Below, one piece after another: positions 1 through 57,227 of a stretch of 64,000 nt of DNA (the stretch's first letter is position 1; the number at the start of each line of letters is the position of its first letter). The notes below the pieces were generated by a model. It did not search any database and was not told where the DNA came from. It worked only from the letters and a program-made list of their open reading frames with translations. The position numbers and the translations under genes are program-made. The stretch spans positions 20,668,534 through 20,732,533 of the forward strand of contig CM120644.1 of the NCBI GenBank assembly GCA_051362555.1. Direction: 5' to 3'. The stretch comes from Lingula anatina. Its lineage: Eukaryota > Animalia > Brachiopoda.

Positions 1-355
1 CTAAGAAATTATTATTTTTGAAAAGGATCACTTAGATCCCACTCAGTTTTAAATATGTTCAAGGTAACAAGGGTTAATGTGAGCTGTCAGGAGTTGAGGG
101 GGAGGGGGGGGTTTGCTCAGCAAAAATTTTAATATAGACAAAATGTCATGTATATATCTTGATGCTTGTGCATTGTCGCTTGAGACATTCAATGTGTCTG
201 TATATATTCTGATCACTGTGTATATCTTTATTGTTGCTGTATGTGTTAATTATAATATAATAATATATATTTTGATCACTGTGTTATGTCTGTGTTGTAA
301 CTACTGTATGTGTCTACATATATATTTTTATTGATGATGTATTATCTGTTTTCAG

Positions 356-435
356 TAGAGATGAAGGTGTGTTTCCTGGATTATCATCACATTGAGGACA
401 ACTGAACTGATCTCAACCTAGCAGCCTCAGCACAG
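356..435 (+). ncRNA. Putative 80-nt non-coding exon (first copy; repeated in each A monomer)
   Basis: Preceded by tattatctgttttcag and followed by gtcagt. Stops in all three frames. Splice signals are kept in the diverged copies at 49,883 and 62,641. Expression cannot be seen from sequence. Confidence 0.5.
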
Positions 436-757
436 GTCAGTGCAACTATGATATTGCCAAACCGATGATTCTGTTCAATCGCAATGTGACCATTGCCACT
501 ATATGTTGTACCTAAGAAATTATGATTTTGGAAAAGGATCACTTAGATCCCACTCAGTTTTATATATGTTCAAGGTGACAAGGGTTAATGTGAGCTGTCA
601 GGAGTTGGGGAGAGGGGGGGGGGGGGTGTTCGCTTAGCAAAAATCTTGATATAGCCAAAATTTTATGTATACATTCTGATGCCTGTGCATTGTCTGTGAT
701 GACATTGAATGTGTCTGTATATATTCTGGTCACTGTCTATGTCTTTATTGTCGCTGT

Positions 758-955
758 AATCAAATCTAGTTCTACAGCCTTACATCATCAGCAAAAAAAG
801 GTCAGTGCAGTAATGATATTGCTACACTGGTGATTCTCTTCAATCCCATTTTGACCATCACTATATGTTGTAACTAAGAAATTAACATTTGTAAATGGGT
901 CACTTAGATCCAAACCAGTTTTAAATATGTTCGAGGTGACGGGTTAGTGTGAACT
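758..955 (+). repeat. Diverged B-type monomer segment (first of ~19), lacking the acceptor and the 5' half of the exon cassette
   Basis: tctacagccttacatcatcagcaaaaaaag|gtcagt aligns to A-type tctcaacctagcagcctcagcacag|gtcagt. The downstream part carries many fixed differences. Confidence 0.85.
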
Positions 956-2367
956 AGATCCCACTCAGTTTTATATATGTTCAAGGTGACAAGGGTTTAA
1001 GTGAAATGTCATGAGTTGGGTGGAGGGTTCGCTTCGCAAAAATCTTGTTGAGTTGAGGGGGAGGGGGGGGTTTGCTCAGCAAAATGTCTTTATAATATAA
1101 TAATATATTTTGATCACTGTGTTATGTCTGTGTTGTAACTACTGTATGTGTCTACATATATATTTTTATTGATGATGTATTATCTGTTTTCAGTAGAGAT
1201 GAAGGTGTGTTTCCTGGATTATCATCACACTGAGGACAACTGAACTGATCTCAACCTAGCAGCCTCAGCACAGGTCAGTGCAACTATGATATTGCCATAC
1301 TGATGATTCTGTTCAATCGCAATGTGACCATTGCCACTATATGCTGTACCTAAGAAATTATCATTTTGGAAAAGGATCACTTAGATCCCACTCAGTTTTA
1401 TATATGTTCAAGGTGACAAGGGTTAATATGAAATGTCACGAGTTGGGGGGAGGGTTCGCTTCGCAAAAATCTTGATATAGCCAAAATTTAATGCATACAT
1501 TCTGTTGCCTGTGCATTGTCTGTGATGACATTGAATGTGTCTGTATATATTCTGGTCACTGTCTATGTCTTTATTGTTGCTGTATGTGTTTATTATAATA
1601 TAATAATATATATTTTGATCACTGTGTTATGTCTGTGTTGTAACTACTGTATGTGTCTACATATATATTTTTATTGATGATGTATTATCTGTTTTCAGTA
1701 GAGATGAAGGTGTGTTTCCTGGATTATCATCACACTAAAGACAACTGAACTGATCTCAACCTAGCAGCCTCAGCACAGGTCAGTGCAACTATGATATTGC
1801 CATACCGATGATTCTGTTCAATCGCAATGTGACCATTGCCACTATATGCTGTACCTAAGAAATTATCATTTTGGAAAAGGATCACTTAGATCCCACTCAG
1901 TTTTATATATGTTCAAGGTAACAAGGGTTAATGTGAACTGTTAGGAGTTGGGGGAGTTGGGGGGCTTCTCTCAGAAAAAATTTTGATATAGACAAAATTT
2001 CATGTATATATCTTGATGTTTTGTGCATTGTCTGTGATGACATTAAATGTGTCTGTATATATTCTGGTCACTGTCTATGTCTTTATTGTTGTTGTATGTG
2101 TTTCTTATAATTAATAAATATATATTTTGATCACTGTGTTATGTCTGTGTTGTAACTACTGTATGTGTCTACATATATATTTTTATTGATGATGTATTAT
2201 CTGTTTTCAGTAGAGATGAAGGTGTGTTTCCTAGATTATCATCACACTGAGGACAACTGAACTGATCTCAACCTAGCAGCCTCAGCACAGGTCAGTGCAA
2301 CTATGATATTGCCATTGCCACTATATGCTGTACCTAAGAAATTATCATTTTGGAAAAGGATCACTTA

Positions 2368-2582
2368 GGCTCTGTTCTCACAACTTTTAGATCGATCTAT
2401 CACCGCGGGGAGTCTCACTAGATTACTGTCAGATAATCCCCCTTAAGTGTCCGTCCCCGCCTACTACAAGCTTTAAGGGGTAATTAACTTTCGTGTCCGC
2501 CCGGCTGACAGCTATTTAGCGTAAACCCCCAGGGAGTTAGGTCGATCCAATGTAGGTCGATCTAATCTATGAGAATGGGGTG
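2368..2582 (+). mobile_element. 215-bp MITE, PIF/Harbinger (Tourist)-like, copy 1
   Basis: Empty site gatcacTTAgatccc becomes gatcacTTA-[ggctctgttctca...tgagaatggggtg]-TTAgatccc. 3-bp TTA TSD, imperfect TIRs with inner tagatcga repeats. Confidence 0.85.
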
Positions 2583-3577
2583 TTAGATCCCACTCAGTTT
2601 TATATATGTTCAAGGTGACAAGGGTTAATATGAAATGTCAGGAGTTGGGGGGAAGGTTCGATTCGCAAAAATCTTGATATAGCCAAAATTTTATGCATAC
2701 ATTCTGTTGCCTGTGCTTTGTCTGTGATGACATTGAATGTTTCTGTATATATTCTGGTCACTGTCTTTGTCTTTATTGTTGCTGTATGTGTTAATTATAA
2801 TATAATAATATATACGTATTTTGATCACTGTGTTATGTCTGTGTTGTAACTACTGTATGTGTCTACATATATATATATTTTTATTGATGATGTATTATCT
2901 GTTTTCAGTAGAGATGAAGGTGTGTTTCTTGGATTATCATCACACTGAGGACAACTGAACTGATCTCAACCTAGCAGCCTCAGCACAGGTCAGTGCAACT
3001 ATGATATTGCCATACCGATGATTCTGTTCAATCGCAAAGTGACCATTGCCACTATATGCTGTACCTAAGAAATTATCATTTTGGAAAAGGATCACTTAGA
3101 TCCCACTCAGTTTTATATATGTTCAAGGTAACAAGGGTTAATGTGAACTGTTAGGAGTTGGGGGAGTTGGGGGGCTTCTCTCAGAAAAAATTTTGATATA
3201 GACAAAATTTCATGTATATATCTTGATGTTTTGTGCATTGTCTGTGATGACATTAAATGTGTCTGTATATATTCTGGTCACTGTCTATGTCTTTATTGTT
3301 GTTGTATGTGTTTCTTATAATTAATAAATATATATTTTGATCACTGTGTTATGTCTGTGTTGTAACTACTGTATGTGTCTACATATATATTTTTATTGAT
3401 GATGTATTATCTGTTTTCAGTAGAGATGAAGGTGTGTTTCCTAGATTATCATCACACTGAGGACAACTGAACTGATCTCAACCTAGCAGCCTCAGCACAG
3501 GTCAGTGCAACTATGATATTGCCATTGCCACTATATGCTGTACCTAAGAAATTATCATTTTGGAAAAGGATCACTTA

Positions 3578-3792
3578 GGCTCTGTTCTTACAACTTTTAG
3601 ATCGATCTATCACCGCGGGGAGTCTCACTAGATTACTGTCAGATAATCCCCCTTAAGTGTCCGTCCCCGCCTACTACAAGCTTTAAGGGGTAATTAACTT
3701 TCGTGTCCGCCCGGCTGACAGCTATTTAGCGTAAACCCCCAGGGAGTTAGGTCGATCCAATGTAGGTCGATCTAATCTATGAGAATGGGGTG
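3578..3792 (+). mobile_element. 215-bp MITE copy 2
   Basis: Near-identical to copy 1, same site and TSD. Confidence 0.85.
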
Positions 3793-6700
3793 TTAGATCC
3801 CACTCAGTTTTATATATGTTCAAGGTGACAAGGGTTAATATGAAATGTCAGGAGTTGGGGGGAAGGTTCGATTCGCAAAAATCTTGATATAGCCAAAATT
3901 TTATGCATACATTCTGTTGCCTGTGCTTTGTCTGTGATGACATTGAATGTTTCTGTATATATTCTGGTCACTGTCTTTGTCTTTATTGTTGCTGTATGTG
4001 TTAATTATAATATAATAATATATACGTATTTTGATCACTGTGTTATGTCTGTGTTGTAACTACTGTATGTGTCTACATATATATTTTTATTGATGATGTA
4101 TTATCTGTTTTCAGTAGAGATGAAGGTGTGTTTCCTGGATTATCATCACATTGAGGACAACTGAACTGATCTCAACCTAGCAGCCTCAGCACAGGTCAGT
4201 GCAACTATGATATTGCCATACCGATGATTCTGTTCAATCGCAATGTGACCATTGCCACTATATGTTGTACCTAAGAAATTATGATTTTGGAAAAGGATCA
4301 CTTAGATCCCACTCAGTTTTATATATGTTCAAGGTGACAAGGGTTAATGTGAGCTGTCAGGAGTTGGGGAGGGGGGGGGGGGGGTGTTCGCTTAGCAAAA
4401 ATCTTGATATAGCCAAAATTTTATGTATACATTCTGATGCCTGTGCATTGTCTGTGATGACATTGAATGTGTCTGTATATATTCTGGTCACTGTCTATGT
4501 CTTTATTGTCGCTGTAATCAAATCTAGTTCTACAACCTTACATCATCAGCAAAAAAAGGTCAGTGCAGTAATGATATTGCTACACTGGTGATTCTCTTCA
4601 ATCCCATTTTGACCATCACTATATGTTGTAACTAAGAAATTAACATTTGTAAATGGGTCACTTAGATCCAAACCAGTTTTAAATATGTTCGAGGTGACGG
4701 GTTAGTGTGAACTAGATCCCACTCAGTTTTATATATGTTCAAGGTGACAAGGGTTTAAGTGAAATGTCATGAGTTGGGTGGAGGGTTCGCTTCGCAAAAA
4801 TCTTGTTGAGTTGAGGGGGAGGGGGGGGTTTGCTCAGCAAAATGTCTTTATAATATAATAATATATTTTGATCACTGTGTTATGTCTGTGTTGTAACTAC
4901 TGTATGTGTCTACATATATATTTTTATTGATGATGTATTATCTGTTTTCAGTAGAGATGAAGGTGTGTTTCCTGGATTATCATCACACTGAGGACAACTG
5001 AACTGATCTCAACCTAGCAGCCTCAGCACAGGTCAGTGCAACTATGATATTGCCATACTGATGATTCTGTTCAATCGCAATGTGACCATTGCCACTATAT
5101 GCTGTACCTAAGAAATTATCATTTTGGAAAAGGATCACTTAGATCCCACTCAGTTTTATATATGTTCAAGGTGACAAGGGTTAATATGAAATGTCACGAG
5201 TTGGGGGGAGGGTTCGCTTCGCAAAAATCTTGATATAGCCAAAATTTAATGCATACATTCTGTTGCCTGTGCATTGTCTGTGATGACATTGAATGTGTCT
5301 GTATATATTCTGGTCACTGTCTATGTCTTTATTGTTGCTGTATGTGTTTATTATAATATAATAATATATATTTTGATCACTGTGTTATGTCTGTGTTGTA
5401 ACTACTGTATGTATCTACATATATATTTTTCTTGATGATGTATTATCTGTTTTCAGTAGAGATGAAGGTGTGTTTCCTGGATTATCATCACACTGAGGAC
5501 AACTGAACTGATCTCAACCTAGCAGCCTCAGCACAGGTCAGTGCAACTATGATATTGACATATTAATGATTCTGTTAAATCGCAATGTGACCATTGCCAC
5601 TATATGCTGTACCTAAGAAATTATTATTTTTGAAAAGGATCACTTAGATCCCACTCAGTTTTAAATATGTTCAAGGTAACAAGGGTTAATGTGAGCTGTC
5701 AGGAGTTGAGGGGGAGGGGGGGGTTTGCTCAGCAAAAATTTTAATATAGACAAAATGTCATGTATATATCTTGATGCTTGTGCATTGTCGCTTGAGACAT
5801 TCAATGTGTCTGTATATATTCTGATCACTGTGTATATCTTTATTGTTGCTGTATGTGTTAATTATAATATAATAATATATATTTTGATCACTGTGTTATG
5901 TCTGTGTTGTAACTACTGTATGTGTCTACATATATATTTTTATTGATGATGTATTATCTGTTTTCAGTAGAGATGAAGGTGTGTTTCCTGGATTATCATC
6001 ACATTGAGGACAACTGAACTGATCTCAACCTAGCAGCCTCAGCACAGGTCAGTGCAACTATGATATTGCCAAACCGATGATTCTGTTCAATCGCAATGTG
6101 ACCATTGCCACTATATGTTGTACCTAAGAAATTATGATTTTGGAAAAGGATCACTTAGATCCCACTCAGTTTTATATATGTTCAAGGTGACAAGGGTTAA
6201 TGTGAGCTGTCAGGAGTTGGGGAGAGGGGGGGGGGGGGGGGTGTTCGCTTAGCAAAAATCTTGATATAGCCAAAATTTTATGTATACATTCTGATGCCTG
6301 TGCATTGTCTGTGATGACATTGAATGTGTCTGTATATATTCTGGTCACTGTCTATGTCTTTATTGTCGCTGTAATCAAATCTAGTTCTACAGCCTTACAT
6401 CATCAGCAAAAAAAGGTCAGTGCAGTAATGATATTGCTACACTGGTGATTCTCTTCAATCCCATTTTGACCATCACTATATGTTGTAACTAAGAAATTAA
6501 CATTTGTAAATGGGTCACTTAGATCCAAACCAGTTTTAAATATGTTCGAGGTGACGGGTTAGTGTGAACTAGATCCCACTCAGTTTTATATATGTTCAAG
6601 GTGACAAGGGTTTAAGTGAAATGTCATGAGTTGGGTGGAGGGTTCGCTTCGCAAAAATCTTGTTGAGTTGAGGGGGAGGGGGGGGTTTGCTCAGCAAAAT

Positions 6701-7982: not shown

Positions 7983-8197
7983 GGCTCTGTTCTCACAACT
8001 TTTAGATCGATCTATCACCGCGGGGAGTCTCACTAGATTACTGTCAGATAATCCCCCTTAAGTGTCCGTCCCCGCCTACTACAAGCTTTAAGGGGTAATT
8101 AACTTTCGTGTCCGCCCGGCTGACAGCTATTTAGCGTAAACCCCCAGGGAGTTAGGTCGATCCAATGTAGGTCGATCTAATCTATGAGAATGGGGTG
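7983..8197 (+). mobile_element. 215-bp MITE copy 3
   Basis: Same sequence, site and TTA TSD. Confidence 0.85.
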
Positions 8198-16988: not shown

Positions 16989-18161
16989 CTCATTGTCCCC
17001 TACCGCCGTCATTTGCCGACAATGTTTTCTTATTTTTATCCCTAGCGTCGTCATTTGACGTCGTAATATTAATAGTACCCATTCCCGACTGTCGTCACAT
17101 GACGGCATCCAATATGGCGGGGCCCTTGCCTAGCGACTTCATATGACGGCATGAGAAAGAAACTTCGATTGGTAAGTTTTAAATAGCTCATTTTCTGATT
17201 GGTTGTTGCTTTTCTTTTGGCCAATAAAAAGGAGAGTACTATAGAACAAAATGTAAACATTTTGAGGGTTGCGGGAAATCTACACATGGAGGAAATACAG
17301 AGTATTTTTGATGAGAGCTCTGGGTCTGAATTTTCGGGATTTGTTAGTGACAGTGAGTCTGACAGCCATAATTTGAGCTATATTTCTTTTGAATAACACT
17401 TTACAGACATAGTCTGAAAGTGAATTAGGCAGCATTAGTGAAGATTTTAGAAGAAGTCAGTGGAAAAACAATCTGTGGGAGGTGGACAAGGAGCATTTCT
17501 GTGGTGAACTGCCTGGATTCACACATGAACTGACGGGTGACTAAGACGAACTAGACTTTAAAAACTGTTCTTATCTGATGAAATACTGAACAAATTGTTG
17601 GAAAATATAAATGCATATGCAACATACAATGACTCTAAATGGAAAGAACAACTAAAAGCATGTCTCGGTGTCAGGATTCATGCGGTATTTTTAAGTTGAT
17701 GTTTATCTTATCACAACTGCATAATATAGATAATAAATATATTTTTTTGTAATCTGATGCTCATCTTTTAATTATATTTTGTAGAATTTTCTTTTTTTGT
17801 ACCTGTTAATATAATCTAAATAAGTATTATGATGTATATTTTATTTATTTATAGACAGTTGTTGAACTTATATTCATTGTTCAATTTTTATAGACCAAAT
17901 TATTCCGACTTCTTCCCCATTCAATAAATAGCAATATTTTGAATATGTCCACTTATAAATAATTTCATAATATACCAATTTCATGCCTTAAGAACCCTGA
18001 AAATTTGAAACAAACAAAACAACAGACCTAGAAAAAGGCCATATTGAATTTCCTCAGGGATATAGGAGAGTGCTGACAGTGGCGCCACCACATGGTGGTG
18101 GCCAGATTTGGTGTTAATGGCTGTAGGGGATCATGCAGCAGTCACTGCAGGGGACAATGAG
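16989..18161 (+). mobile_element. Internally deleted piggyBac element (1,173 bp)
   Basis: TTAA-CTCATTGTCCCCT ... AGGGGACAATGAG-TTAA perfect TIR with TTAA on both sides. Subterminal gtcatNtgacg repeats and a transposase remnant inside. Confidence 0.9.
17286..17687 (+). pseudogene. piggyBac transposase N-terminal remnant
   Basis: Acidic MEEIQSIFDESSGSEFSGFVSDSESD, then after disruptions LFLSDEILNKLLENINAYA...WKEQLKACLGV, resembling the piggyBac F.LF..DE....I...TN.YA / W....ELKAFLG motifs. Confidence 0.75.
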
Positions 18162-25998: not shown

Positions 25999-28900
25999 GT
26001 GTGTGTCCATGATAAGACCAGTCAGAAGGTGGCAAGGTGGGGGTCAACAGATTTCAACCAAATTCATAATATTGTTGCATATATAGGAGATATTAAGATT
26101 GAAGGCAACAATCCCAAAAGAAATCATTGGATATAATTATAATATGATATTATATGTTTTGGCCATTTTTGGCTTGATTTTCAGCTTCGGTCAATAAAGC
26201 CACTTCATAAGCGAATATGTCAAAACTGATGACTTTTTAAAATTAATTGAAAATTTACCTATTTAAACCAGCCATTTGTCATTGAGAATATGTTACTAAA
26301 TTTCAGTTTAACCCACAAACTAACGAGCCATGCCCATTTTTATGACCCCACCCCCCAAACTCACTTTTCTACCAAGCAATGTTCAAGCATTCATATCTCT
26401 CTTTTTGCAGGCTTGACAGCCATAAAATTTTATAGGGATCCTAAGCATATATTGGTCTCATCATACAAATTTCAAAAAGTGTGTTAAACACAACAGAAGA
26501 TATTGAAAAAGTGCCTCAAACTTTAGCAATTTTAGCATTTAATAAGTTATTACTGTGCATATCCAGTGTCATCAGCATTGTGTATATACCTTATTTTCAG
26601 GGAGTTATAGAGAAAAAAATTACAAATGATTTTTCTAAAGGTAAAAGGGAATGACTGTCTCATTTTATCAGTTTTCTCAAGTGCAACACTGATTAATCCA
26701 CTAGAAATGATTTATATTGTATTTTTCAACCATTCTTTTTCCTTTCAAATGATTCATAGGCTTTGTAAATACATGTGATATCTTGATATCTATATTCTTT
26801 TTCTATAAAGAAAATTAAAACAGAGTCAAAAACATACAATGACTGGAGGAGTACTTTATTTTCATATTATCAATTGGACAGTAAAAGAACAAAGCAGTTA
26901 CTTTTTACAAGAGTGAAATCAAGTTATGAATCTCCAAGGTTCCAATATCATGGTCATCTTTTCCATATACTGAACACAACAGTGATGGGTAGTGTTCCAC
27001 AGATTTTAATCTTATAACTGATTGATCCCCAAGTTTCTTCTTCTGGTTGAGAGATCCAGGGTCTCCTACAGTAATAATAATTCAGCAATCTTAGAATAAG
27101 TGTGGTAACTTGAAGCAACATGCCACTATAGTTTAGTGTGACTGAACTGTCAATTGTCAATATTTGTCAATTCAATGGCGCCAATCCTCCTTTCCTACAA
27201 AACTGATTGAGATTTCCAAGCCTAAGATGCACATTTGTTATGGGGGGTTGACCCAAGGTGGCTCTAAGTCCAATAGAGGTTTGCCAGGATATATACTGCG
27301 TCTACCTGAAGATGGCAGGACAGGCTGTCAAATGTATTAAACATATTTTAAACTCATGTTAATTGCTGTGTAAGAACAATTACTAAATAATATTCTGATC
27401 AAACAAATTGCATAAGTATAAAAAAGGAAATCGAATATGCATGATTGTAGCTACCAGAATTTAATGATAGAAAAAGAAACAAATGAAAAAAATGTAAACC
27501 TTTTTTCTTCTCCGTGGAAGTGTTCCAGGCATTACAAAGTTGGTGCTCACATCTGAATCTGATGAATTTGCCTGTGCAATTTCAGGTGACTTTTCTATTA
27601 TTGTCTGTAAGATTGTCCAGGTCAAGGTTCACATACAGGCCTAGAATGTAAAATCTGAAAAATAAACATTACATCAATAAATGCTTTACAACAACAGAGG
27701 CTTACTGTGTTCAGAATAGAAACTATTGTAGCAGGAATTAATCTATCTCAGCAAAGCAACATGAACAACATAATGGACCGCAAAGTTTTCCTGATTTTAC
27801 TAAAGTACCTTTAGTTACAAGTGTCCTATGTAATATGTAAGTCTTGAAATTGAAGCACACCGTGTTACAAAGTCATATAAAGCTAGGCGGTTAACTTCAA
27901 CTTCATTGTAAACACACATAAATCTGCATAGTGAATATAAAACTAAAATATAAAAAAACTAGCACAAGTAACAACCCCTAAAATGCCAAAACTTGAAACT
28001 GAATTTGTGTTACATACCTTTGATTCTGGGTAAGAAATTTCTAATGAAGCCGTCTTCAAGCTCAGTATAGTCCTTCACCGTTTGTGTTATGATAACACAT
28101 GTAACAAAACCCTAGAATTTAATGCAAAAATATACTTTATAAGTTAGATATACAGTTAATTCTTTTCAGCATACATGTTTACCATGAAACAGAAATCAAG
28201 TTAAACTCTGTGAATTGAAATATACCAGTACGTCTTTTAAATTTGCTTAATATTCTTTAAATTACTGAATAATATTCAAACTTATTATTTAAACTGGTTT
28301 GAGTTTTTAGTGTATCTGATTCTAGTATATGTTTGCCACCACTGATCACTTACCTTACAACAAACATCCAGAGCTAAATCGATGAGATGGATATATTGAG
28401 GAACCCAAGCCTGACAACAACAGTCTAAAGAGGTTCAACCAAAAATGCAAATTCTAAGGACGACCAGCTGCTATGGTCATTTCTTGTTATATTCTGGTGC
28501 ACACCAATCCTTCTGAGATGTACCCAAGCATCTCTAGTGCGTGTTCTTCATAAATTTAAGAAAATATTATGTTTTAACACTGTGAAGACGATGTGCTTTG
28601 CTCCACAGTTGCTCCGGTGATAATCCTAGTACCCGCCATGTTGAAAATAGGTCACAGAGTTAGCATCGTTATTTTACATTAAGTTTCTACAGCATAAACA
28701 AATTTAGAAAATGTATTTAAGCTTCATAAGTTCGTCTGCAAGGCAAACATAATTATTGTAAGGGCTTTTCACAAACCTATACATAGTTTTGACTTATTAA
28801 TTTAGTTGAAGAAACAGTTTAGCATTTAAGTAGTATAAAAATATTCGTTTTTAGGCCCTTTTTAAAATTGTTATAGTTCTTATTTTACAAGGTTTAACAC

Positions 28901-29400
28901 AGATTTTATTTTACAAAATTTATTTTCCAACCCTTTTCTATCAGCACATACCAAAATTATATGGATACAACCTGCAAAAAAGAAGTTGTGTGCATTTAAA
29001 GAAGGGGATGGGGTCAAGCATACGGAAAACATGCCTCATTAGAATCAACCTTGTGTGGTCATGACAGTGCCTTTTCAAAAAATCTGTACTGGATATTAAA
29101 GGTCTTTCCTTAACCTATTATGTGGCTTACCTAAATAATTCCTTATGATGTACATGATTTTTTAAAAGAATATTTAAAAATTATAACTTTTCAAGAGCTA
29201 CAAAATGCTATATTTTGGCAAAATTGCCCATAAAAAGATCTGCCCCCATATCTCTAAAACTAATGATCCAAAATAGGAAAGCCAGTGGCTCACAATACCT
29301 TTTATGTTGATGGTTTACCACACCAAAAATTATTAAAATCTGCTGACCCCCACCTTGCCGCCTTCTGACCGATCTGTCTGGCTTTCTCATGGACGCGCTC
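25999..29400. mobile_element. 3.4-kb non-autonomous TIR DNA transposon with TTAA TSD, Kolobok-like
   Basis: Empty site agggTTAAtatg is duplicated on both sides. ~55-65-bp imperfect TIRs (gtgtgtgtccatga...gtcagaaggtggcaaggtgggggtca versus reverse complement gagcgcgtccatga...gtcagaaggcggcaaggtgggggtca). G-starting termini fit Kolobok rather than piggyBac. No transposase recognised. Confidence 0.75.
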
Positions 29401-32400
29401 TTAATATGAAATGTCCTAAGATGTATGCTGTACCTAAGAAATTATCATTTTGGAAAAGGATCACTTAGATCCCACTCAGTTTTATATATGCATGTTCAAG
29501 GTGACAAGGGTTAATATAAAATGTCACGAGTTGGGGGGGGGGGGGGGGGGGTTCGCTTCGCAAAAATCTTGATATAGCCAAAATTTTATGCATACATTCT
29601 GTTGCCTGTGCATTGTCTGTGATGACATTGAATGTGTCTGTATATATTCTGGTCACTGTCTATGTCTTTATTGTTGCTGTATGTGTTTATTATAATATAA
29701 TAATAAATATTTTGATCACTGTGTTATGTCTGTGTTGTAACTACTGTATGTGTCTACATATATATTTTTATTGATGATGTATTATCTGTTTTCAGTAGAG
29801 ATGAAGGTGTGTTTCCTGGATTATCATCACACTGAGGACAACTGAACTGATCTCAACCTAGCAGCCTCAGCACAGGTCAGTGCAACTATGATATTGCCAT
29901 AGCGATGATTCTGTTCAATCGCAATGTGACCATTGCCACTATATGCTGTACCTAAGAAATTATGATTTTGGAAAAGGATCACTTAGATCCCACTCAGTTT
30001 TATATATGTTCAAGGTGACAAGGGTTAATATGAAATGTCACGAGTTGGGGGGAGGGTTCGCTTCGCAAAAATCTTGATATAGCCAAAATTTAATGCATAC
30101 ATTCTGTTGCCTGTGCATTGTCTGTGATGACATTGAATGTGTCTGTATATATTCTGGTCACTGTCTATGTCTTTATTGTTGCTGTATGTGTTTATTATAA
30201 TATAATAATAAATATTTTGATCACTGTGTTATGTCTGTGTTGTAACTACTGTATGTATCTACATATATATTTTTATTGATGATGTATTATCTGTTTTCAG
30301 TAGAGATGAAGGTGTGTTTCCTGGATTATCATCACACTGAGGACAACTGAACTGATCTCAACCTAGCAGCCTCAGCACAGGTCAGTGCAACTATGATATT
30401 GCCATACCGATGATTCTGTTCAATCGCAAAGTGACCATTGCCACTATATGTTGTACCTAAGAAATTATCATTTTGGAAAAGGATCACTTAGATCCCACTC
30501 AGTTTTATATATGTTCAAGGTGACAAGGGTTAATGTGAGCTGTCAGGAGTTGGGGAGGGGGTGGGGTTCGCTTAGCAAAAATCTTGATATAGCCAAAATT
30601 TTATGTATACATTCTGATGCCTGTGCATTGTCTGTGATGACATTGAATTTGTCTGTATATATTCTGGTCACTGTCTATGTCTTTATTGTCGCTGTAATCA
30701 AATCTAGTTCTACAACCTTACATCATCAGCAAAAAAAGGTCAGTGCAGTAATGATATTGCTACACTGGTGATTCTCTTCAATCCCATTTTGACCATCACT
30801 ATATGTTGTAACTGAGAAATTAACATTTGTAAATGTGTCACTTAAATCCAAACCAGTTTTAAATATGTTCGAGGTGACGGGTTAGTGTGAACTGTCAGGA
30901 GTTAGGGGAGGGAGGGGGGGGTTAGCTCAGCAAAAATTTTGATATAGACAAAATTTCATGTATATTTCTTGATGATTTGTGCATTATCGCTTGAGACATT
31001 AAATGTGTCTGTATATATTCTGATCACTGTGTATATCTTTGTTGTTGCTGTATGTGTTAATTATAATATAATAATATATATTTTGATCACTGTGTTATGT
31101 CTGTGTTGTAACTACTGTATGTGTCTACATATATATTTTTATTGATGATGTATTATCTGTTTTCAGTAGAGATGAAGGTGTGTTTCCTGGATTATCATCA
31201 CACTGAGGACAACTGAACTGATCTCAACCTAGCAGCCTCAGCACAGGTCAGTGCAACTATGATATTGCCATAGCGATGATTCTGTTCAATCGCAATGTGA
31301 CCATTGCCACTATATGCTGTACCTAAGAAATTATGATTTTGGAAAAGGATCACTTAGATCCCACTCAGTTTTATATATGTTCAAGGTGACAAGGGTTAAT
31401 ATGAAATGTCACGAGTTGGGGGGAGGGTTCGCTTCGCAAAAATCTTGATATAGCCAAAATTTAATGCATACATTCTGTTGCCTGTGCATTGTCTGTGATG
31501 ACATTGAATGTGTCTGTATATATTCTGGTCACTGTCTATGTCTTTATTGTTGCTGTATGTGTTTATTATAATATAATAATAAATATTTTGATCACTGTGT
31601 TATGTCTGTGTTGTAACTACTGTATGTATCTACATATATATTTTTATTGATGATGTATTATCTGTTTTCAGTAGAGATGAAGGTGTGTTTCCTGGATTAT
31701 CATCACACTGAGGACAACTGAACTGATCTCAACCTAGCAGCCTCAGCACAGGTCAGTGCAACTATGATATTGCCATACCGATGATTCTGTTCAATCGCAA
31801 AGTGACCATTGCCACTATATATTGTACCTAAGAAATTATGATTTTGGAAAAGGATCACTTAGATCCCACTCAGTTTTATATATGTTCAAGGTGACCAGGG
31901 TTAATGTGAGCTGTCAGGAGTTGGGGAGGGGGTGGGGTTCGCTTAGCAAAAATCTTGATATAGCCAAAATTTTATGTATACATTCTGATGCCTGTGCATT
32001 GTCTGTGATGACATTGAATGTTTCTGTATATATTCAGGTCACTGTCTATGTCTTTATTAAAGCTGTAATCAAATCTAGTTCTGCAACCTTACATCATCAG
32101 CAAAAAAAGGTCAGTGCAGTAATGATATTGCTACACTGGTGATATTCTTCAATCCCATTTTGACCATCACTATATGTTGTAACTGAGAAATTAACATTTG
32201 TAAATGTGTCACTTAAATCCAAACCAGTTTTAAATATGTTCAAGGTGACGGGTTAGTGTGAACTGTCAGGAGTTGGGGGAGGGGGGGGGGGGGTTCGCTC
32301 AGCAAAAATTTTGATATAGACAAAATTTCATGTATATATCTTGATGTTTTGTGCATTGTCGCTTGAGACATTAAATGTGTCTGTATATATTCTGATCACT

Positions 32401-34779
32401 GTGTATATCTTTGTTGTTGCTGTATGTGTTAATTATAATATAATAATATAAATTTTGATCACTGTGTTATGTCTGTGTTGTAACTACTGTATGTGTCTAC
32501 ATATATATTTTTATTGATGATGTATTATCTGTTTTCAGTAGAGATGAAGGTGTGTTTCCTGGATTATCATCACACTGAGGACAACTGAACTGATCTCAAC
32601 CTAGCAGCCTCAGCACAGGTCAGTGCAACTATGATATTGCCATACCGATGATTCTGTTCAATCGCAATGTGACCATTGCCACTATATGCTGTACCTAAGA
32701 AATTATGATTTTGGAAAAGGATCACTTAGATCCCACTCAGTTTTATATATGTTCAAGGTAACAATGGTTAATGTGGGCTGTCAGGAGTTGGGGAGAGGGG
32801 GGTGGGGGGTTCTCTTATCAAAAATCTTGATATAGCCAAAATTTTATGTATACATTCTGATGCCTGTGCATTGTCTCTGATGACATTGAATGTGTCTGTA
32901 TATATTCTGGTCAATGTGTATGTCTTTATTGTTGTTGTATGTGTTAATTATAATATAATAATATATTTTGATCACTGTGTTATGTCTGTATTGTAACTAC
33001 TGTATGTGTCTATACATATATATTTTTATTGATAATGTATTATCTGTTTTCAGTAGAGATGAAGGTGTGTTTCCTGGATTATCATCACACTGAGGACAAC
33101 TGAACTGATCTCAACCTAGCAGCCTCAGCACAGGTCAGTGCAACTATGATATTGCCATACTGATGATTCTGTTCAATCGCAATGTGACCATTGCCACTAT
33201 ATGCTGTACCTAAGAAATTATCATTTTGGAAAAGGATCACTTAGATCCCACTCAGTTTTATATATGTTCAAGGTAACAAGGGTTAATGTGAACTGTTAGG
33301 AGTTGGGGGAGGGGGGGGGGGGCTTCTCTCAGAAAAAATTTTGATATAGACAAAATTTCATGTATATATCTTGATGTTTTGTGCATTGTCTGTGATGACA
33401 TTAAATGTGTCTGTATATATTTTGGTCACTGTCTAAGTCTTTATTGTTGTTGTATGTGTTTCTTATAATTAATAAATATATATTTTGATCACTGTGTTAT
33501 GTCTGTGTTGTAACTACTGTATGTGTCTACATATATATTTTTATTGATGATTGCCACTATATGCTGTACCTAAGAAATTATCATTTTGGAAAAGGATCAC
33601 TTAGATCCCACTCAGTTTTATATATGTTCAAGGTGACAAGGGTTAATATGAAATGTCAGGAGTTGGGGGGAAGGTTCGAGTCGCAAAAATCTTGATATAG
33701 CCAAAATTTTATGCATACATTCTGTTGCCTGTGCATTGTCTGTGATGACATTGAATGTTTCTGTATATATTCTGGTCACTGTCTTTGTCTTTATTGTTGC
33801 TGTATGTGTTAATTATAATATAATAATATATATTTTGATCACTGTGTTATGTCTGTGTTGTAACTACTGTATGTGTCTACATATATATTTTTATTGATGA
33901 TGTATTATCTGTTTTCAGTAGAGATGAAGGTGTGTTTCCTGGATTATCATCACACTGAGGACAACTGAACTGATCTCAACCTAGCAGCCTCAGCACAGGT
34001 CAGTGCAACTATGATATTTCCATACCGATGATTCTGTTCAATCGCAAAGTGACCATTGCCACTATATGTTGTACCTAAGAAATTATCATTTTGGAAAAGG
34101 ATCACTTAGATCCCACTCAGTTTTATATATGTTCAAGGTGACAAGGGTTAATGTGAGCTGTCAGGAGTTGGGGAGGGGGTGGTGTTCGCTTAGCAAAAAT
34201 CTTGATATAGCCAAAATTTTATGTATACATTCTGATGCCTGTGCATTGTCTGTGATGACATTGAATGTTTCTGTGTATATTCTGGTCACTGTCTATGTCT
34301 TTATTAAAGCTGTAATCAAATCTAGTTCTGCAACCTTACATCATCAGCAAAAAAAGGTCAGTGCAGTAATGATATTGCTACACTGGTGATTCTCTTCAAT
34401 CCCATTTTGACCATCACTATATGTTTTAACTGAGAAATTAGCATTTGTAAATGTGTCACTTCAATCCAAACCAGTTTTAAATATGTTCAAGGTGACGGGT
34501 TAGTGTGAACTGTCAGGAGTTGGGGGAGGGGGGGGGGGGTTCGCTCAGCAAAAATTTTGATATAGACAAAATTTCATGTATATATCTTGATGTTTTGTGC
34601 ATTGTCGCTTGAGACATTAAATGTGTCTGTATATATTCTGATCACTGTGTATATCTTTGTTGTTGCTGTATGTGTTAATTATAATATAATAATATAAATT
34701 TTGATCACTGTGTTATGTCTGTGTTGTAACTACTGTATGTGTCTACATATATATTTTTATTGATGATGTATTATCTGTT

Positions 34780-37700
34780 TTCAGTAGAGATGAAGGTGTG
34801 TTTCCTGGATTATCATCACACTGAGGACAACTGAACTGATCTCAACCTAGCAGCCTCAGCACAGGTCAGTGCAACGATGATATTGCCATACCGATGATTC
34901 TGTTCAATCGCAATGTGACCATTGCCACTATATGCTGTACCTGAGAAATTATGATTTTGGAAAAGGATCACTAAGATCCCACTCAGTTTTATATATGTTC
35001 AAGGTGACAAGGGTTAATGTGAGCTGTCAGGAGTTGGGGAGAGGGGGGGTGGGGGGTTCTCTTATCAAAAATCTTGATATAGCCAAAATTTTATGTATAC
35101 ATTCTGATGCCTGTGCATTGTCTGTGATGACATTTAATGTGTCTGTATATATTCTGGTCACTGTCTATGTCTTTATTGTCGCTGTAATCAAATCTAGTTC
35201 TACAACCTTACATCATCAGCAAAAAAAGGTCAGTGCAGTAATGATATTGCTACACTGGTGATTCTCTTCAATCCCATTTTGACCATCACTATATGTTGTA
35301 ACTAAGAAATTAACATTTGTAAATGGGTCACTTAGATCCAAACCAGTTTTAAATATGTTCGAGGTGACGGGTTAGTGTGAACTAGATCCCACTCAGTTTT
35401 ATATATGTTCAAGGTGACAAGGGTTAAAGTGAAATGTCACGAGTTGGGTGGAGGGTTCGCTTCGCAAAAAGCTTGATATAGCCAAAATTTTATGCATACA
35501 TTCTGTTGCCTGTGCATTGTCTGTGATGACATTGAATGTGTCTGTATATATTCTGGTCACTGTCTATGTCTTTATTGTTGCTGTATGTGTTTATTATAAT
35601 ATAATAATATATATTTTGATCACTGTGTTATGTCTGTGTTGTAACTACTGTATGTGTCTACATATATATTTTTATTGATGATGTATTATCTGTTTTCTGT
35701 AGAGATGAAGGTGTGTTTCCTGGATTATCATCACACTGAGGACAACTGAACTGATCTCAACCTAGCAGCCTCAGCACAGGTCAGTGCAACTTTGATATTG
35801 CCATACCAATGATTCTGTTCAATCACAATGTGACCATTGCCACTATATGCTGTACCTAAGAAATTATGATTTTGGAAAAGGATCACTTAGATCCCACTCA
35901 GTTTTATATATGTATGTTCAAGGTGACAAGGGTTAATATGAAATGTCACGAGTTGGGGGGGGGGGGGGGGGGTTCGCTTAGCAAAAATCTTGATATAGCC
36001 AAAATTTTATGCATACATTCTGTTGCCTGTGCATTGTCTGTGATGACATTGAATGTTATTGTATATATTCTGGTCACTGTCTTTATCTTTATTGTTGCTG
36101 TATGTGTTAATTATAATATAATAATATATACGTATTTTGATCACTGTGTTATGTCTGTGTTGTAACTACTGTATGTGTCTACATATATATTTTTATTGAT
36201 GATGTATTATCTGTTTTCAGTAGAGATGAAGGTGTGTTTCTTGGATTATCATCACACTGAGGACAACTGAACTGATCTCAACCTAGCAGCCTCAGCACAG
36301 GTCAGTGCAACTATGATATTGCCATACTGATGATTCTGTTCAATCGCATTGTGACCATTGCCACTATATGTTGTACCTAAGAAATTATCATTTTGGAAAA
36401 GGATCACTTAGATCCCTCTCAGTTTTATATATGTTCAAGGTGACAAGGGTTAATGTGAGCTGTCAGGAGTTGGGGAGGGGGTGGGGTTCGCTTAGCAAAA
36501 ATCTTGATATAGCCAAAGTTTTATGTATACATTCTGATGCCTGTGCATTGTCTGTGATGACATTGAATGTGTCTGTGTATATTCTGGTCACTGTCTATGT
36601 CTTTATTAAAGCTGTAATCAAATCTAGTTCTGCAACCTTACATCATCAGCCAAAAAAGGTCGGTGCAGTAATGATATTGCTACACTGATGATTCTCTTCA
36701 ATCCCATTTTGACCATCACTATATGTTGTAACTGAGAAATTAACATTTGTAAATGTGTCACTTAAATCCAAACCAGTTTTAAATATGTTCGAGGTGACGG
36801 GTTAGTGTGAACTGTCAGGAGTTGGGGGAGGGGGGGGTTCGCTCAGCAAAAATTTTGATATAGACAAAATTTTATGTATATATCTTGATGCTTGTGCATT
36901 GTCGCTTGAGACATTGAATGTGTCTGTATATATTCTGATCACTGTGTATATCTTTATTGTTGCTGTATGTGTTAATTATAATATAATAATATATATTTTG
37001 ATCACTGTGTTATGTCTGTGTTGTAACTACTGTATGTGTCTACATATATATTTTTATTGATGATGTATTATCTGTTTTCAGTAGAGATGAAGGTGTGTTT
37101 CTTGGATTATCATCACACTGAGGACAACTGAACTGATCTCAACCTAGCAGCCTCAGCACAGGTCAGTGCAACTATGATATTGCCATAGCGATGATTCTGT
37201 TCAATCGCAAAGTGACCATTGCCACTATATGTTGTACCTAAGAAATTATCATTTTAGAAAAGGATCACTTAGATCCCACTCAGTTTTATATATGTTCAAG
37301 GTGACAAGGGTTAATGTGAAATGTCACGAGTTGGGGGGATTGTTCGCTTCGCAAAAATCTTGATATAGCCAAAATTTTATGCATACATTCTGTTGCCTGT
37401 GCATTGTCTGTGATGACATTGAATGTGTCTGTATATATTCTGGTCACTGTCTATGTCTTTATTGTTGCTGTATGTGTTTATTATAATATAATAATATATA
37501 TTTTGATCACTGTGTTATGTCTGTGTTGTAACTACTGTATGTGTCTACATATATATTTTTATTGATGATGTATTATCTGTTTTCAGTAGAGATGAAGGTG
37601 TGTTTCCTAGATTATCATCACACTGAGGACAACTGAACTGATCTCAACCTAGCAGCCTCAGCACAGGTCAGTGCAACTATGATATTGCCATACCGATGAT

Positions 37701-43380: not shown

Positions 43381-44463
43381 ATTCTGTTCAATCGCAAAGT
43401 GACCATTGCCACTATATGTTGTACCTAAGAAATTATCATTTTGGAAAAGGATCACTTAGATCCCACTCAGTTTTATATATGTTCAAGGTAACAAGGGTTA
43501 ATGTGAACTGTCATTAGTTGGCGAGGGGGGGTGGGGGGGTTCGCTTATCAAAGATATTGATATAGCCAAAATTTTATGTATACATTCTGATGCCTTTGCA
43601 TTGTCTGTGATGACATTGAATGTGTCTGTATATATTGTGGTCACTGTCTATGTCTTCAATCCCATTTTGACCCTCACTATATGTTGTAACTGAGAAATTA
43701 ACATTTGTAAATGGGTCACTTAAATCCAAACCAGTTTTAAATATGTTCGAGGTGATGGGTTAGTGTGAACTGTCAGAAGTTGGGGGAGGGGGGGGGGGGT
43801 TCGCTCAGCAAAAATTTTGATATAGACAAAATTTCATGTATATATCTTGATGCTTGTGCATTGTTGCTTGAGACATTGAATGTGTCTGTATATATTCTGA
43901 TCACTGTGTATATCTTTATTGTTGCTGTATGTGTTAATTATAATATAAAAATATATTTTGATCACTTTGTTATGTTTGTGTTGTAAATACTGTATGTGTT
44001 TACATATATATTTTTATTGATGATGTATTATCTGTTTTCAGTAGAGATGAAGGTGTGTTTCCTAGATTATCATCACACTGAGGACAACTGAACTGATCTC
44101 AACCTAGCAGCCTCAGCACAGGTCAGTGCAACTATGATATTGCCATACCGATTATTCTGTTCAATCGCAATGTGACCATTGCCACTATATGCTGTACCTA
44201 AGAAATTATGATTTTGGAAAAGGAACACTTAGATCCCACTCAGTTTTATATATGTTCAAGGTAACAAGGGTTAATATGAAATGTCACGAGTTGGGGGGAT
44301 TGTTCGCTTCACAAAAATCTTGATATAGCCAAAATTTTATGCATACATTCTGTTGCCTGTGCATTGTCTGTGATGACATTGAATGTGTCTGTATATATTC
44401 TGGTCACTGTCTATGTCTTTATTGTTGCTGTATGTGTTCATTATATTTTGATCACTGTGTTAT

Positions 44464-47400
44464 CCCAGATAGCAAGCATACGTTGGGCCAACGTAGGGGA
44501 ATCGTTGGTTTGTTGGCACATAGTTGGCGTTGGTAGTAATACGTTGGCCCAACGTTGGCCCAACCACATCATAATATGCACAACATAACTGCAATATGCT
44601 CACGTTGGCCCAACGTTGGGCCAACGTATGCATATTTATTGCATACGTTGGCCTAACGTTGGGCCAACGTATCCAAATAACAACTCAATAGAAATGAATA
44701 ATGTTTCTGTTATAATAAAAATGTTTCTGTTCACAACTGAGAATCACATGTGCTTATAAATATCTATTGATCAGTAACATACAGTTTTTAGGATTAAAAA
44801 AAATAATTTTTTTTAATGAAGAGTTTGTCAAATTCCTTGGGTTTAAAAACAGTTTTCTGCTTTTATTTGTCTTCCAAGCTATATACTCTCATATATAGTA
44901 CATAGACTTCACCTATAAAAAAATAACTGAGTGAACAGATTTATATTTTTAAATAATGCTGTGAAACATATGTATTATTATTGCTATTATTATTATTGTT
45001 ATTGAAATCAGAAAAATGATTGAAATCTTATTATAATGTACAATTGCACAATATATAAATTTTAAACTTTATAGTTAGCATCAATTGACTTTTGATTAAA
45101 GTAAACCAGTAACTTTCACTGGACCAGATTCATTACAAGCCAGGTGTTTATCTTAACTGTCAGTTTGATATAAACAGTTTGCCTACTGCCTGCTCAAACA
45201 GGTCAAATAACTATGCATAGCACAGTACGTCTTAAGCGCGCAGCCGTTGAGCCAATTCAAAAATTTAAGCCAGAAGGTCAGAAATGCTCTAAGGAAGAGG
45301 CAAGAATTAAGACTGAAAGCATTGATTTCTGGATATAAAAAGAAGATATCTTTTTGGAAATTAGAAAAGGAAGAGATAAAGAGACAGGATAAGAAGTGAG
45401 CATGAAATGGTAAGTGACTTTTTAATTGTGTATTTTCCCATTATTTACTGATGCACCAGGATCCATACAGCCTTGAAAAGTGTTCAAATTTAGTCCAGCA
45501 CTTTGGACTAGTTTTAATGTAACTAGTTTAAATGTAACTTTGAAAAGTACTTGAAAATGCTATTAGGCTTGAAAAAGGTTTGCACTTCAGCATTTTGTCT
45601 TTGTAAAAATATTATTTAAAACTTTGTAGTTTATTGACATGAATACAGACAATAATTCACAGATGGGGGTATACCTTAAGTTTTAATACATCATAACTTG
45701 TACTTTTATTTTCAACTTTTCATCATCAATGTGTTACAAAGACAAAGTTAAAATGAAATGAGTCCTTTTTCCTTTGGTATGTACACTTTAAAATAACTGT
45801 ATTAATGTATAACTTGCCCTCATTAGTTAAAAATCATTGAAAATGATTTGAATTAGAGCCTTAAAAGTCCTTGGAAACCAATTGTTCTTATGGGTCTGTA
45901 TGAATCCTGGCCAGTAAATTCTGTGATAGAGTTGTTGGAATGATTAAATGATGTGGAATTTAGTGGTACATTACAGTTGTCTAAAAATTGAATTCATGCA
46001 TGGTCAAGTGTACACGTAAGAAGTAATTTAAATAAATCACTATAAATTACTGCACACAAGACACACTTTTATAGTTAAGATTTTGGCTGTTGCCTAACTT
46101 ACATGTAGAAAAGGTGGGGAGATTATCATATAATACACACCTACTAGTACTAGTTTGTATATGAAAACAGTGATGGGGGAAGAGGTACAGTCATGTTATG
46201 CACCATACCAATTCTAGCATTATATTTCAAGTGTTTTTAATATTTAAATTTGTAGGTGCAGCACACTCTTCTGTGACTGGTTAGACAAATATATTGAGGA
46301 TACATCCAACTAATTGTGCTTTGCCAAAGATCACACAGGTGCCTGCAGGGCAGGAAAGAGAGAAAAAACACAAAGATTGAACTCATATGACCACTGACTT
46401 GATTTTTAAAGAGACAATGTCTGAGATTTTGCCTGAAGGAAGAGACTGTGATTTTATAGACTTGACATATAACTTATGAAAAGCATCTTACCTGACATTG
46501 ACAAGGGTTTCTGGTTTAAATTTTGATTTAATGAAAATATTTTTAAAAATTGAAATGAGGCAAAAAAGACTACTAGTAGAAAAATGCCTTGACTCCACAA
46601 ATAAGGTGATAAGTCATAGGACTGTAATATTTTTTCTTGATGTGAATCATGTAACAATTGATATAAGACACACTTATTAATGTTTAAATTTAATATTATA
46701 GTATCTTATAAAATTTTTCTTTGTTGTCTTTTTGTATTATATTTCAATTCACATATCATTATTTAGTTGGTATAAGGTATTTGTTTTATGTAATGTTATG
46801 AATTAATTAAACAGTTCAAAACATATCACTAATCTTTTTGTTTCAACCACAATTATTAATTGACAATTTTCCAGGTGTAGTGTAAATGATCACAGGCAGA
46901 TCAAGTCCTCTGAAGGATTCATCCCTTAGAAAGCTTTCTAATTTTTCAGTCATATCTTGCAGTTTGCAGATTTCAGATGCTCAAGATATTTCATCAGGAC
47001 ATTGATCTGCCTATGCATCAGACGTGTAATTACAGTGCCCTACTACCTATGTGATTCCAAAAAAGTTATTTTGCCTTCAGCTCAATGTTGGGTCACTGTA
47101 AATCACCGTGCCCCTGGTTTTAGGTTGGGTCATAATTTGTTGTGCAAATTGCAGATGACTTGGTGACCAGTTGGCCTACCGTTGGGCCAACGCGGATGCA
47201 TTGTTGGTTTGAGGTTGGGTAATTGTTGGACTGATGTTGGTTATTAGTAGAACCAACGTAAATGCACTGTTGGTTACAGGTTGGGGAATTGTTGGACTAA
47301 TGTTGGTTATTAGTTGGCCCAATGTAGGGCCAATGCAGTTTGGTTGGGTAATTGTTGGACTGATGTTGGTTACAGGTTGGGAAATTGTTGGCCCAATGTT

Positions 47401-47598
47401 GGTTATTAGTTGGCCCAATGTAGGGCCAACGCAGTTTGGTTGGGAATACGTTGGCAATGCGTTGGCATTCAAAAGACTTTCAGCCAACCGTTGGCCAAAG
47501 TGAGCACTTAGATGGAAACCCAACGTTGGGCCAACGTTGCACGGTCAACCAAGGCAACGTTGGGCCAACGTTGGCCCAACGTATGCTTGCTATCTGGG
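44464..47598. mobile_element. 3.1-kb non-autonomous CMC/EnSpm-like DNA transposon
   Basis: Perfect TIR CCCAGATAGCAAGCATACGTTGGGCCAACG. 2-bp TSD AT against the empty site gtgttATgtctg. Many subterminal quasi-palindromes ACGTTGGSCCAACGT at both ends. Confidence 0.85.
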
Positions 47599-50074
47599 AT
47601 GTCTGTGTTGTAACTACTGTATGTGTCTACATATATATTTTTATTGATGATGTATTATCTGTTTTCAGTAGAGATGAAGGTGTGTTTCCTGGATTATCAT
47701 CACACTGAGGACAACTGAACTGATCTCAACCTAGCAGCCTCAGCACAGGTCAGTGCAACTATGATATTGCCATACCGATGATTCTGTTCAATCACAATGT
47801 GACCATTGCCACTATATGTTGTACCTAAGAAATTATTATTTTGGAAAAGGATCACTTAGATCCCACTCAGTTTTATATATGTTCAAGGTAACAAGGGTTA
47901 ATGTGAGCTGTCAGGAGTTGGGGGGGGGGGGGGTTTCGCTTAGCAAAAATCTTGATATAGCCAAAATTTTATGTATACATTCTGATGCCTGTGCATTGTC
48001 TGGGATGACATTGAATGTGTCTGTATATATTCTGGTCACTGTCTATGTCTTTATTAAAGCTGTAATCAAATCTAGTTCTGCAACCTTACATCATCAGTGA
48101 AAAAAGGTCAGTGCAGTAATGATATTGCTACACTGGTGATTCTCTTCAATCCCAGTTTGACCATCACTATATGTTGTAACTGAGAAATTAACTTTTGTAA
48201 AAGGGTCACTTAAATCCAAACCAGTTTTAAATATGTTCGAGGTGACGGGTTAGTGTGAACTGTCAGGAGTTGGGGGAGGGGGGGGGGCTTCGCTCAGCAA
48301 AAATTTTGATATAGACAAAATTTCATGTATATATCTTGATGCTTGTGCATTGTCGCTTGAGACATTGAATGTGTCTGTATATATTCTGATCACTGTGTAT
48401 ATCTTTATTGTTGCTGTATGTGTTAATTATAATATAAAAATATATTTTGATCACTGTGTTATGTTTGTGTTGTAAATACTGTATGTGTCTACATATATAT
48501 TTTTATTGATGATGTATTATCTGTTTTCAGTAGAGATGATGGTGTGTTTCCTAGATTATCATCACACTGAGGACAACTGAACTGATCTCAACCTAGCAGC
48601 CTCAGCACAGGTCAGTGCAACTATGATATTGCCATACCGATTATTCTGTTCAATCGCAATGTGACCATTGCCACTATATGCTGTACCTAAGAAATTATGA
48701 TTTTGGAAAAGGAACACTTAGATCCCACTCAGTTTTATATATGTTCAAGGTAACAAGGGTTAATATGAAATGTCACGAGTTGGGGGGATTGTTCGCTTCG
48801 CAAAAATCTTGATATAGCCAAAATTTTATGCATACATTCTGTTGCCTGTGCATTGTCTGTGATGACATTGAATGTGTCTGTATATATTCTGGTCACTGTC
48901 TATGTCTTTATTGTTGCTGTATGTGTTCATTATATTTTGATCACTGTGTTATGTCTGTGTTGTAACTACTGTATGTGTCTACATATATATTTTTATTGAT
49001 GATGTATTATCTGTTTTCAGTAGAGATGAAGGTGTGTTTCCTGGATTATCATCACACTGAGGACAACTGAACTGATCTCAACCTAGCAGCCTCAGCACAG
49101 GTCAGTGCAACTATGATATTGCCATACCGATGATTCTGTTCAATCACAATGTGACCATTGCCACTATATGTTGTACCTAAGAAATTATTATTTTGGAAAA
49201 GGATCACTTAGATATCCCACTCAGTTTTATATATGTTCAAGGTAACAAGGGTTAATGTGAGCTGTCAGGAGTTGGGGGGGGGGGGTTTCGCTTAGCAAAA
49301 ATCTTGATATAGCCAAAATTTTATGTATACATTCTGATGCCTGTGCATTGTCTGGGATGACATTGAATGTGTCTGTATATATTCTGGTCACTGTCTATGT
49401 CTTTATTAAAGCTGTAATCAAATCTAGTTCTGCAACCTTACATCATCAGTGAAAAAAGGTCAGTGCAGTAATGATATTGCTACACTGGTGATTCTTTTCA
49501 ATCCCATTTTGACCATCACTATATGTTGTAACTGAGAAATTAACATTTGTAAAAGGGTCACTTAAATTCAAACCAGTTTTAAATATGTTCGAGGTGACGG
49601 GTTAGTGTGAACTGTCAGGAGTTGGGGGAGGGGGGGGGGCTTTGCTCAGCAAAAATTTTGATATAGACAAAATTTCATGTATATATCTTGATGCTTGTGC
49701 ATTGTCGCTTGAGACATTGAATGTGTCTGTATATATTCTGATCACTGTGTATATCTTTATTGTTGCTGTATGTGTTAATTATAATATAATAATATATTTT
49801 GATCACTGTGTTATAACTGTGTTGTAACTACTGTATGTGTCTACATATATATTTTTATTGATGATGTATTATCTGTTTTCAGTAGAGATGAAGGTGTGTT
49901 TCCTGGATTATCATCACACTGAGGACAGCTGAACTGATCTCAATCTCACAGCTTCAGCACAGGTCAGTGCAACAATGATATTGTCATACTGATGATTCTT
50001 TTTAATCATATTGTGACCATGCATTGTCTGTTGTGACATTGAATTAGTCTGTATGTATATTGATCATTGTCTAT

Positions 50075-54441: not shown

Positions 54442-54486
54442 TGCAGCTGATGAAGGTCACTTGTTGACCGAAAAGTGCTTTCTGCA
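54442..54486 (+). ncRNA. Minimal type I hammerhead ribozyme (Penelope-type)
   Basis: TGCAG-CTGATGA-a-GGTCA cttgt TGACC-GAAA-AGTGCT-TT-CTGCA: intact core, 5-bp stems I and II, quasi-palindromic short stem III. Confidence 0.75.

Positions 54487-57224: not shown

Positions 57225-57227
<3 letters not shown>

Follow-up and report, generated by a model that had tools for sequence, protein, structure and literature searches.

A satellite-like array of 80-nt cassettes in Lingula anatina and a family of spliced non-coding exons

What is a satellite doing if each of its units looks like an exon with its introns? The question is raised by a 64,000-nt stretch of the brachiopod Lingula anatina (GenBank assembly GCA_051362555.1, contig CM120644.1, positions 20,668,534 to 20,732,533 of the forward strand), which is the window analysed here and to which all positions below refer. 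An original prediction, made from the letters of the window, had described about 66 tandem copies of an 80-nt cassette at 340–49,970, and we counted 66 on the + strand at 356–49,962, with a simple period of 505–521 nt. There is also a 67th copy that the prediction did not include, standing alone at 62,641–62,720. The prediction saw in the array either a spliced long non-coding RNA (lncRNA) built of the repeat, about 5 kb long if all copies are included, or a host that releases repeated intronic RNAs. We find that the cassette belongs to a family of exons which is transcribed and spliced into a multi-exon non-coding RNA, a conclusion we hold as almost certain; how much of that RNA comes from the array itself is a more difficult matter.

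The reads were examined against one monomer of the array. Its cassette, at 29,796–29,875, has the majority sequence, which is identical in 23 copies, and it is followed by a 425-nt GT-AG intron at 29,876–30,300, of which the first 225 nt are covered in the read alignment. Nine RNA-Seq runs from the same species are available, and four of them (X1, X4, X7 and X2, belonging to three studies) were aligned to this monomer with a threshold of 90% likeness. The portions sampled were about 6, 6, 25 and 6 percent, and the runs possibly come from individuals other than the one sequenced, with different array alleles. The numbers of aligned reads were 49, 77, 146 and 39 in the four runs, 311 in total. 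The peak of the depth was found on the cassette in all four (about 32, 70, 130 and 17), and the intron depth was 0 at 29,906–29,973 in all four and at most about 2 beyond. The upstream intron at 29,668–29,786 had a depth of 0 in three runs and of 4–8 in X7. All first mates on the cassette were on the − strand in X1 and X4, and about 15 to 2 in X2, which in most stranded libraries means that the RNA is from the + strand, the same strand as the splice sites.

The junction between two cassettes, which the prediction had given as the thing to look for, was present in three of the four runs. The joint goes back 80 positions with three shared letters, which corresponds to the donor at 29,875 being joined to the acceptor at 29,796, and it was seen exactly in 23 reads: 19 in X7 (with 15 different starts), three in X4, one in X2 and none in X1. 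The shorter side of the junction reads in X7 was up to 62 letters, and in this run the donor is also joined to exon starts that differ slightly. The joined, intron-less form is not found in the DNA of the window, since successive cassettes are at least 349 nt apart. Besides the cassette, it was possible to observe a separate + strand transcript that has 36 nt in common with the spacer (29,624–29,659) and continues on both sides into unrelated, spacer-like sequence (at most 11, 6 and 21 reads in X1, X4 and X2); it may be a terminal exon or a retained intron of a sister unit.

A circle made of one 80-nt exon and a linear chain would give the identical joint on a one-monomer reference, and the joined form was compared with the DNA of the window alone, so that such joints could also arise from a circle of this kind, from trans-splicing or from a (retro)copy without introns at another place in the DNA. 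However, neighbouring exons in the reads differ from one another in both sequence and length, which is impossible for a single circle and implies that related but unlike exons follow one another in a linear RNA. The libraries in which the exon-family RNA is present also include poly(A) and oligo-dT selections. Genes for spliced leaders do not have both an acceptor and a donor on each unit, unlike the cassettes here. An origin of the joints other than linear cis-splicing is thus very improbable.

The RNA is non-coding, since the exon lengths seen in the reads do not preserve a frame and the longest frame that starts with Met in a spliced model is 14 codons. The lengths, calculated from the joint tables, are 80, 84, 91 and 95 nt, and there is in addition a 2-nt deletion. 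The prediction had seen stops in all three frames, and this was borne out: when all frames were checked, none of the 66 array copies was open on the + strand, and splicing 65 cassettes together in silico on this strand gave no more than 33 stop-free codons. A repetitive protein gene that is read through its stops (for example with selenocysteine), or from a shifted acceptor, could be suggested by the lone copy, which is open in one frame from its second AG, and by one TGA that changes to sense codons in the reads. Neither 80 nor 77 is a multiple of 3, however, and among the variants listed there was none at the stops in columns 7–9 and 38–40. With the frames shut and the exon lengths out of frame the coding and selenoprotein readings were rejected, and a protein gene is the least credible of the explanations we considered. 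The open frame of the lone copy (62,644–62,720, 25 codons, where two of the six differences from the majority remove stops) is probably due to chance. A tandem pair of AG, 3 nt apart, is found at the acceptor of the representative cassette too (29,796–29,799), and six loose read ends in each of X1 and X2 are compatible with the use of the second AG or with a sister exon that is 3 nt shorter. Open reading frames of 101–133 codons in the spacers were also set aside; they have no fixed start codon, they cross a G-run of variable length and there is no read depth over them in the aligned monomer.

Most of the reads (75–98%) continue into sequence unlike the monomer, and in all four runs these loose ends turned out to be the ends and starts of related exons. 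The expressed exons are mainly diverged sister exons outside the window, some of them longer (about 95–100 nt). One form of about 100 nt, with 24 and 28 reads in X7, ends like the units that we call B, of which there are 19 in the array. A B unit (a representative one is at 30,697–30,738 on the + strand) consists of the 3' end and the donor of a second, longer type of exon. A 19-letter piece of the 100-nt form matches all 19 of them with 0–1 mismatch, and since this end is found on full-length exons in the reads the B units are stumps of a second real exon type. Another loose end matches B units only, with 3 mismatches and 8 matches in the window, and two exon-like loose ends are absent from the window even with 3 mismatches allowed. 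The last cassette of the array, at 49,883–49,962 on the + strand, is diverged (75 of 80 positions as in the array majority), and its 3' end resembles that of a sister exon in the reads. The two loose ends absent from the window are unlike the cassette and were joined before 29,793 in X4 and after 29,875 in X7 (7 and 10 reads); they could stem from an upstream exon that is unique and from a distant type of exon.

The array extends beyond the left edge of the window. It has the properties of a complex satellite: its monomers are head-to-tail, its spacers fall into several diverged subtypes with indels, as had been predicted and as was confirmed when 65 intervals were aligned (28 of them simple monomers), and it contains higher-order block duplications, the recent ones being 4.7 kb at 99.3% and 2.0 kb at 98.3%. 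It is likely that a few older and diverged units, A, B and no fewer than four spacer subtypes, underwent tandem multiplication and were mixed by unequal crossing-over, and that the cassette and the acceptor region were homogenised faster than the middle of the spacer. The exon family to which the cassette belongs, with exons of 80–100 nt, forms spliced non-coding RNA, and the array may lie inside such a transcription unit and be spliced in at least some samples. By analogy to Firre, the mature RNA may be nuclear, with the repeated exon serving to bind a single kind of RNA-binding protein many times over. Such a role as a scaffold we consider possible but somewhat doubtful. Taken as a whole, our preferred reading, on which we see the odds as evenly balanced, is a Firre-like non-coding RNA of many related 80–100-nt exons, in which the array is a young, satellite-like expansion that adds docking modules.

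Several observations weigh against giving the array such a part. The expression is low, 39–146 reads per 9.5–12.4 million records, and neither a promoter, a first exon nor a poly(A) site was located. Only 2 of the 311 reads are at least 99% alike to the monomer, and 239 are 90–95% alike. Column 46 of the cassette is an A in 65 of the 66 array copies, and the reads have a G in X1 (12/12), X4 (39/39) and X2 (10/10), which means that the array base is absent from all 61 reads in these three runs. In X7 the reads compatible with the array number no more than 44 of 106 at column 46 and no more than 9 of 58 at column 65. The array has also amplified units that are broken: in the 19 B units the donor is kept but the acceptor and the 5' portion of the cassette are gone, and one unit near 33,550 is without its entire cassette. 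The prediction that the splice sites are intact holds for the donor, CAG/GTCAGT in 67 of 67 cassettes and so unchanged in every A copy as had been claimed, and for 65 of 67 acceptors (TTTTCAG); in the copies at 35,700 and 40,866 the AG is replaced by TG. Even the invariance of the donor is within chance, since 22 of the 80 cassette columns are variable and 0 variable columns out of the 6 of the donor is then unremarkable.

The diversity between the copies can be read in the same manner. Across the 66 copies it (pi) is 0.024 in the cassette, 0.044–0.059 in the 120 nt past the donor and about 0.09 in the middle of the spacer with all spacers pooled, but the 45 intron bases before the acceptor, with 0.012, vary less than the cassette itself. 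When the four main subtypes of the spacer were compared (58 units with a cassette following, of 83 blocks), the divergence was 0.138 in mid-spacer, 0.029 in the cassette and 0.021 in the acceptor region, but this contrast is partly circular, as the mid-spacer itself served to define the clusters, and the same result could be reached by gene conversion without selection. The lone cassette agrees with the majority at 74 of 80 positions and its flanks match at 142 of 165, which is not a significant difference (Fisher p 0.20), and the folding of the repeated cassette is unremarkable (z +0.75). Insertions spare the cassette in 5 events, which is within chance as it makes up 16% of the unit.

Several of these observations are what would be expected if the RNA family is real and the array is mostly a silent young satellite that budded from one unit, in which case its splice sites would be intact owing to the youth of the copies, and the array, and perhaps the RNA, has no selected role. 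Transposons throughout the array and in the 12.7-kb gap that follows it also fit this explanation, which is the chief rival and which we consider a serious, if less than even, possibility. Against it stands X7, where 54 reads are at least 95% alike to the monomer in addition to the junction reads, and the missing array bases may be due to the runs coming from individuals with other alleles. All 67 cassettes are exactly 80 nt from acceptor to donor without a single indel, as compared to the many in the spacers. Furthermore, the cassette is clearly independent of the spacer subtypes, which fits selection or biased homogenisation, and along the array the + strand has a skew with G over C and T over A, which we count in favour of the Firre-like reading. 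By a small margin we lean towards the array itself being spliced into RNA, which is weakly supported and plausible for part of the X7 reads only. The predicted spliced lncRNA of an 80-nt repeat is right as far as an RNA of this exon family is spliced at the predicted ends; its exons are mostly diverged sisters from outside the array, and the ladder of about 5 kb stays a prediction. The lone copy carries the non-array bases that the reads show at columns 46 and 65, and that the reads share its bases makes the array look like a derived expansion.

The other suggestion of the prediction was a host that releases intronic RNAs. In the form considered here the exons would be mere carriers, as in the hosts SNHG14 or C19MC, and each intron would yield a precursor of a small nucleolar RNA (snoRNA) or a microRNA (miRNA). 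The layout is as in SNORD115 cluster 1, described as repeated host exons around an intronic snoRNA (10.1101/2021.07.27.453820), and in the lone copy a pair resembling a C box and a D box follows the donor. All nine RNA runs are ordinary RNA-Seq, so the search for a cargo rests on scans of the DNA. Rfam gave no match in the whole window at gathering thresholds, and none in 29,700–31,300 at E up to 5. None of the 86 spacers has a C box (with at most 1 mismatch), a D box and a 4-bp stem on the + strand; one of them has a C box without mismatch together with a D box on this strand, and 14 have preserved the candidate D box. A similar pattern, whose C box has 1 mismatch, is present on the − strand in 19 of the 86 spacers; being antisense to the RNA, it was not considered further. 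H/ACA snoRNAs were not seen with Rfam or in the general folding scan, and no search aimed at them was made. The folding scan of one array monomer and the lone unit showed no long miRNA-like hairpin. Its best 80-nt window on the + strand folds with −15.8 kcal/mol (z −2.5) and has many interrupting loops; this value and the best on the − strand (z −3.1) are uncorrected over about 100 windows and were not taken as evidence. Finally, the middle of the intron is the most variable part of the unit. The results lower the host-gene reading, which finds no support here and which we now regard as improbable.

The window holds no recognisable host gene, and what surrounds the cassettes is mainly repeats. 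In the lone unit, at 62,593–62,853 on the + strand, the two splice sites are present and the homology extends over about 180 nt of flank. The gap between it and the last cassette of the array (49,963–62,640) contains a decayed monomer and pieces of transposons, and may be one expanded intron. No more homologues of the cassette were found in the three large insertions of the array or, besides the lone copy, in the region 50–64 kb, and metagenome scans with the cassette motif and with a donor-side motif gave 0 loci each.

The three large insertions are in spacers and are DNA-transposon-like: one at 16,989–18,161 has terminal inverted repeats and a TTAA duplication, one at 25,999–29,400 has a TTAA duplication, and one at 44,464–47,598 has long terminal or subterminal inverted repeats and a 2-bp AT duplication. 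A smaller spacer element of about 200 bp, at 2,385–2,587, was copied along with the array to 5 places and has an inverted relative at 50,070–50,268, just inside the gap. Further into the gap a 31-bp inverted pair (93.5%) at 51,077–58,000 encloses 6.9 kb of a repeat mixture free of DDE domains, in which there are a near-perfect palindrome of 186 bp (52,900–53,085) and, at 57,228, 42 consecutive T. A 51-nt stretch at 58,457–58,507 resembles an exon, with a pyrimidine tract, an AG and a GTGAGT donor, and is a candidate exon. At 59,404–62,312 there is a Tc1-like element with 32-bp inverted ends and a DDE_3 fragment, in which a piece of a Penelope-like retroelement is nested; its frame of 365 codons for a reverse transcriptase (RT) and GIY-YIG (60,617–61,714, − strand) is situated between 151-bp inverted copies, and its named relatives are from amphioxus, brachiopod, brittle star and coral. 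Fragments of DDE_3 transposase are also found at 50,659–51,000 and 63,409–63,804.

If the array is spliced, what any pipeline would mask out as a satellite serves as an exon in spliced RNA, and the turnover of a satellite would be tied directly to the number of modules in an lncRNA. This would make the locus a tractable test of how repeat-built lncRNAs originate and of whether the module count is important. A more general idea, speculative and in our view rather unlikely, is that of an 'exon satellite': a cargo-free lncRNA gene in which exon-intron cassettes expand and homogenise as a satellite, where copy number and the combinatorial splicing of dozens of related exons without coding capacity would tune the valency of the scaffold, and which may be one member of a class hidden by repeat masking in many eukaryotes. 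If true, the Firre and SNHG14 layout would be represented outside mammals, at satellite scale.

How does the locus compare with known systems? In C19MC and other intronic miRNA clusters, repeated exon-intron cassettes are part of a non-coding transcript; the array monomer differs in having no pre-miRNA-like hairpin and no Rfam match. The cluster 1 of SNORD115 in SNHG14 of placental mammals shares the tandem non-coding exon-intron units, which are described as highly similar, spliced and polyadenylated (10.1101/2021.07.27.453820), but the introns here yielded no box C/D snoRNA, and conservation is lowest in their middle. Among invertebrates, hsr-omega of Drosophila is also an lncRNA with a long tandem repeat, but it is described as having two exons and one intron plus the repeat stretch, whereas here each unit is its own exon (10.1101/695486). 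The Octopus RNA Zmast is likewise a marine-invertebrate lncRNA; it is described with one or two large exons and no repeated-exon array, and is not of the same build (10.1101/2024.12.09.627507). An invertebrate lncRNA of tandem exon-intron units was not found in the literature searched, which is weak evidence of absence as subscription papers were thinly covered. The closest likeness is to Firre, whose exonic repeat RRD makes up 7 of 13 exons in human and 11 of 23 in mouse, retains the RNA in the nucleus and binds hnRNPU (PMC4820808). Both are spliced non-coding RNAs with many exons that derive from a single repeat, restricted to one locus in Firre and possibly so here, and both have other repeats in their introns. 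Here, in contrast to the exon numbers of Firre, there are at least 66 near-identical head-to-tail exon-intron units, with satellite-like block duplications. The likeness is one of architecture only; sequence homology to RRD is not expected and membership is not claimed. As the layout has mammalian precedents in Firre and SNHG14, the locus is a variant and not the undescribed system first proposed, and what is new here is the satellite scale, the lack of cargo as far as scanned, and the non-mammalian setting.

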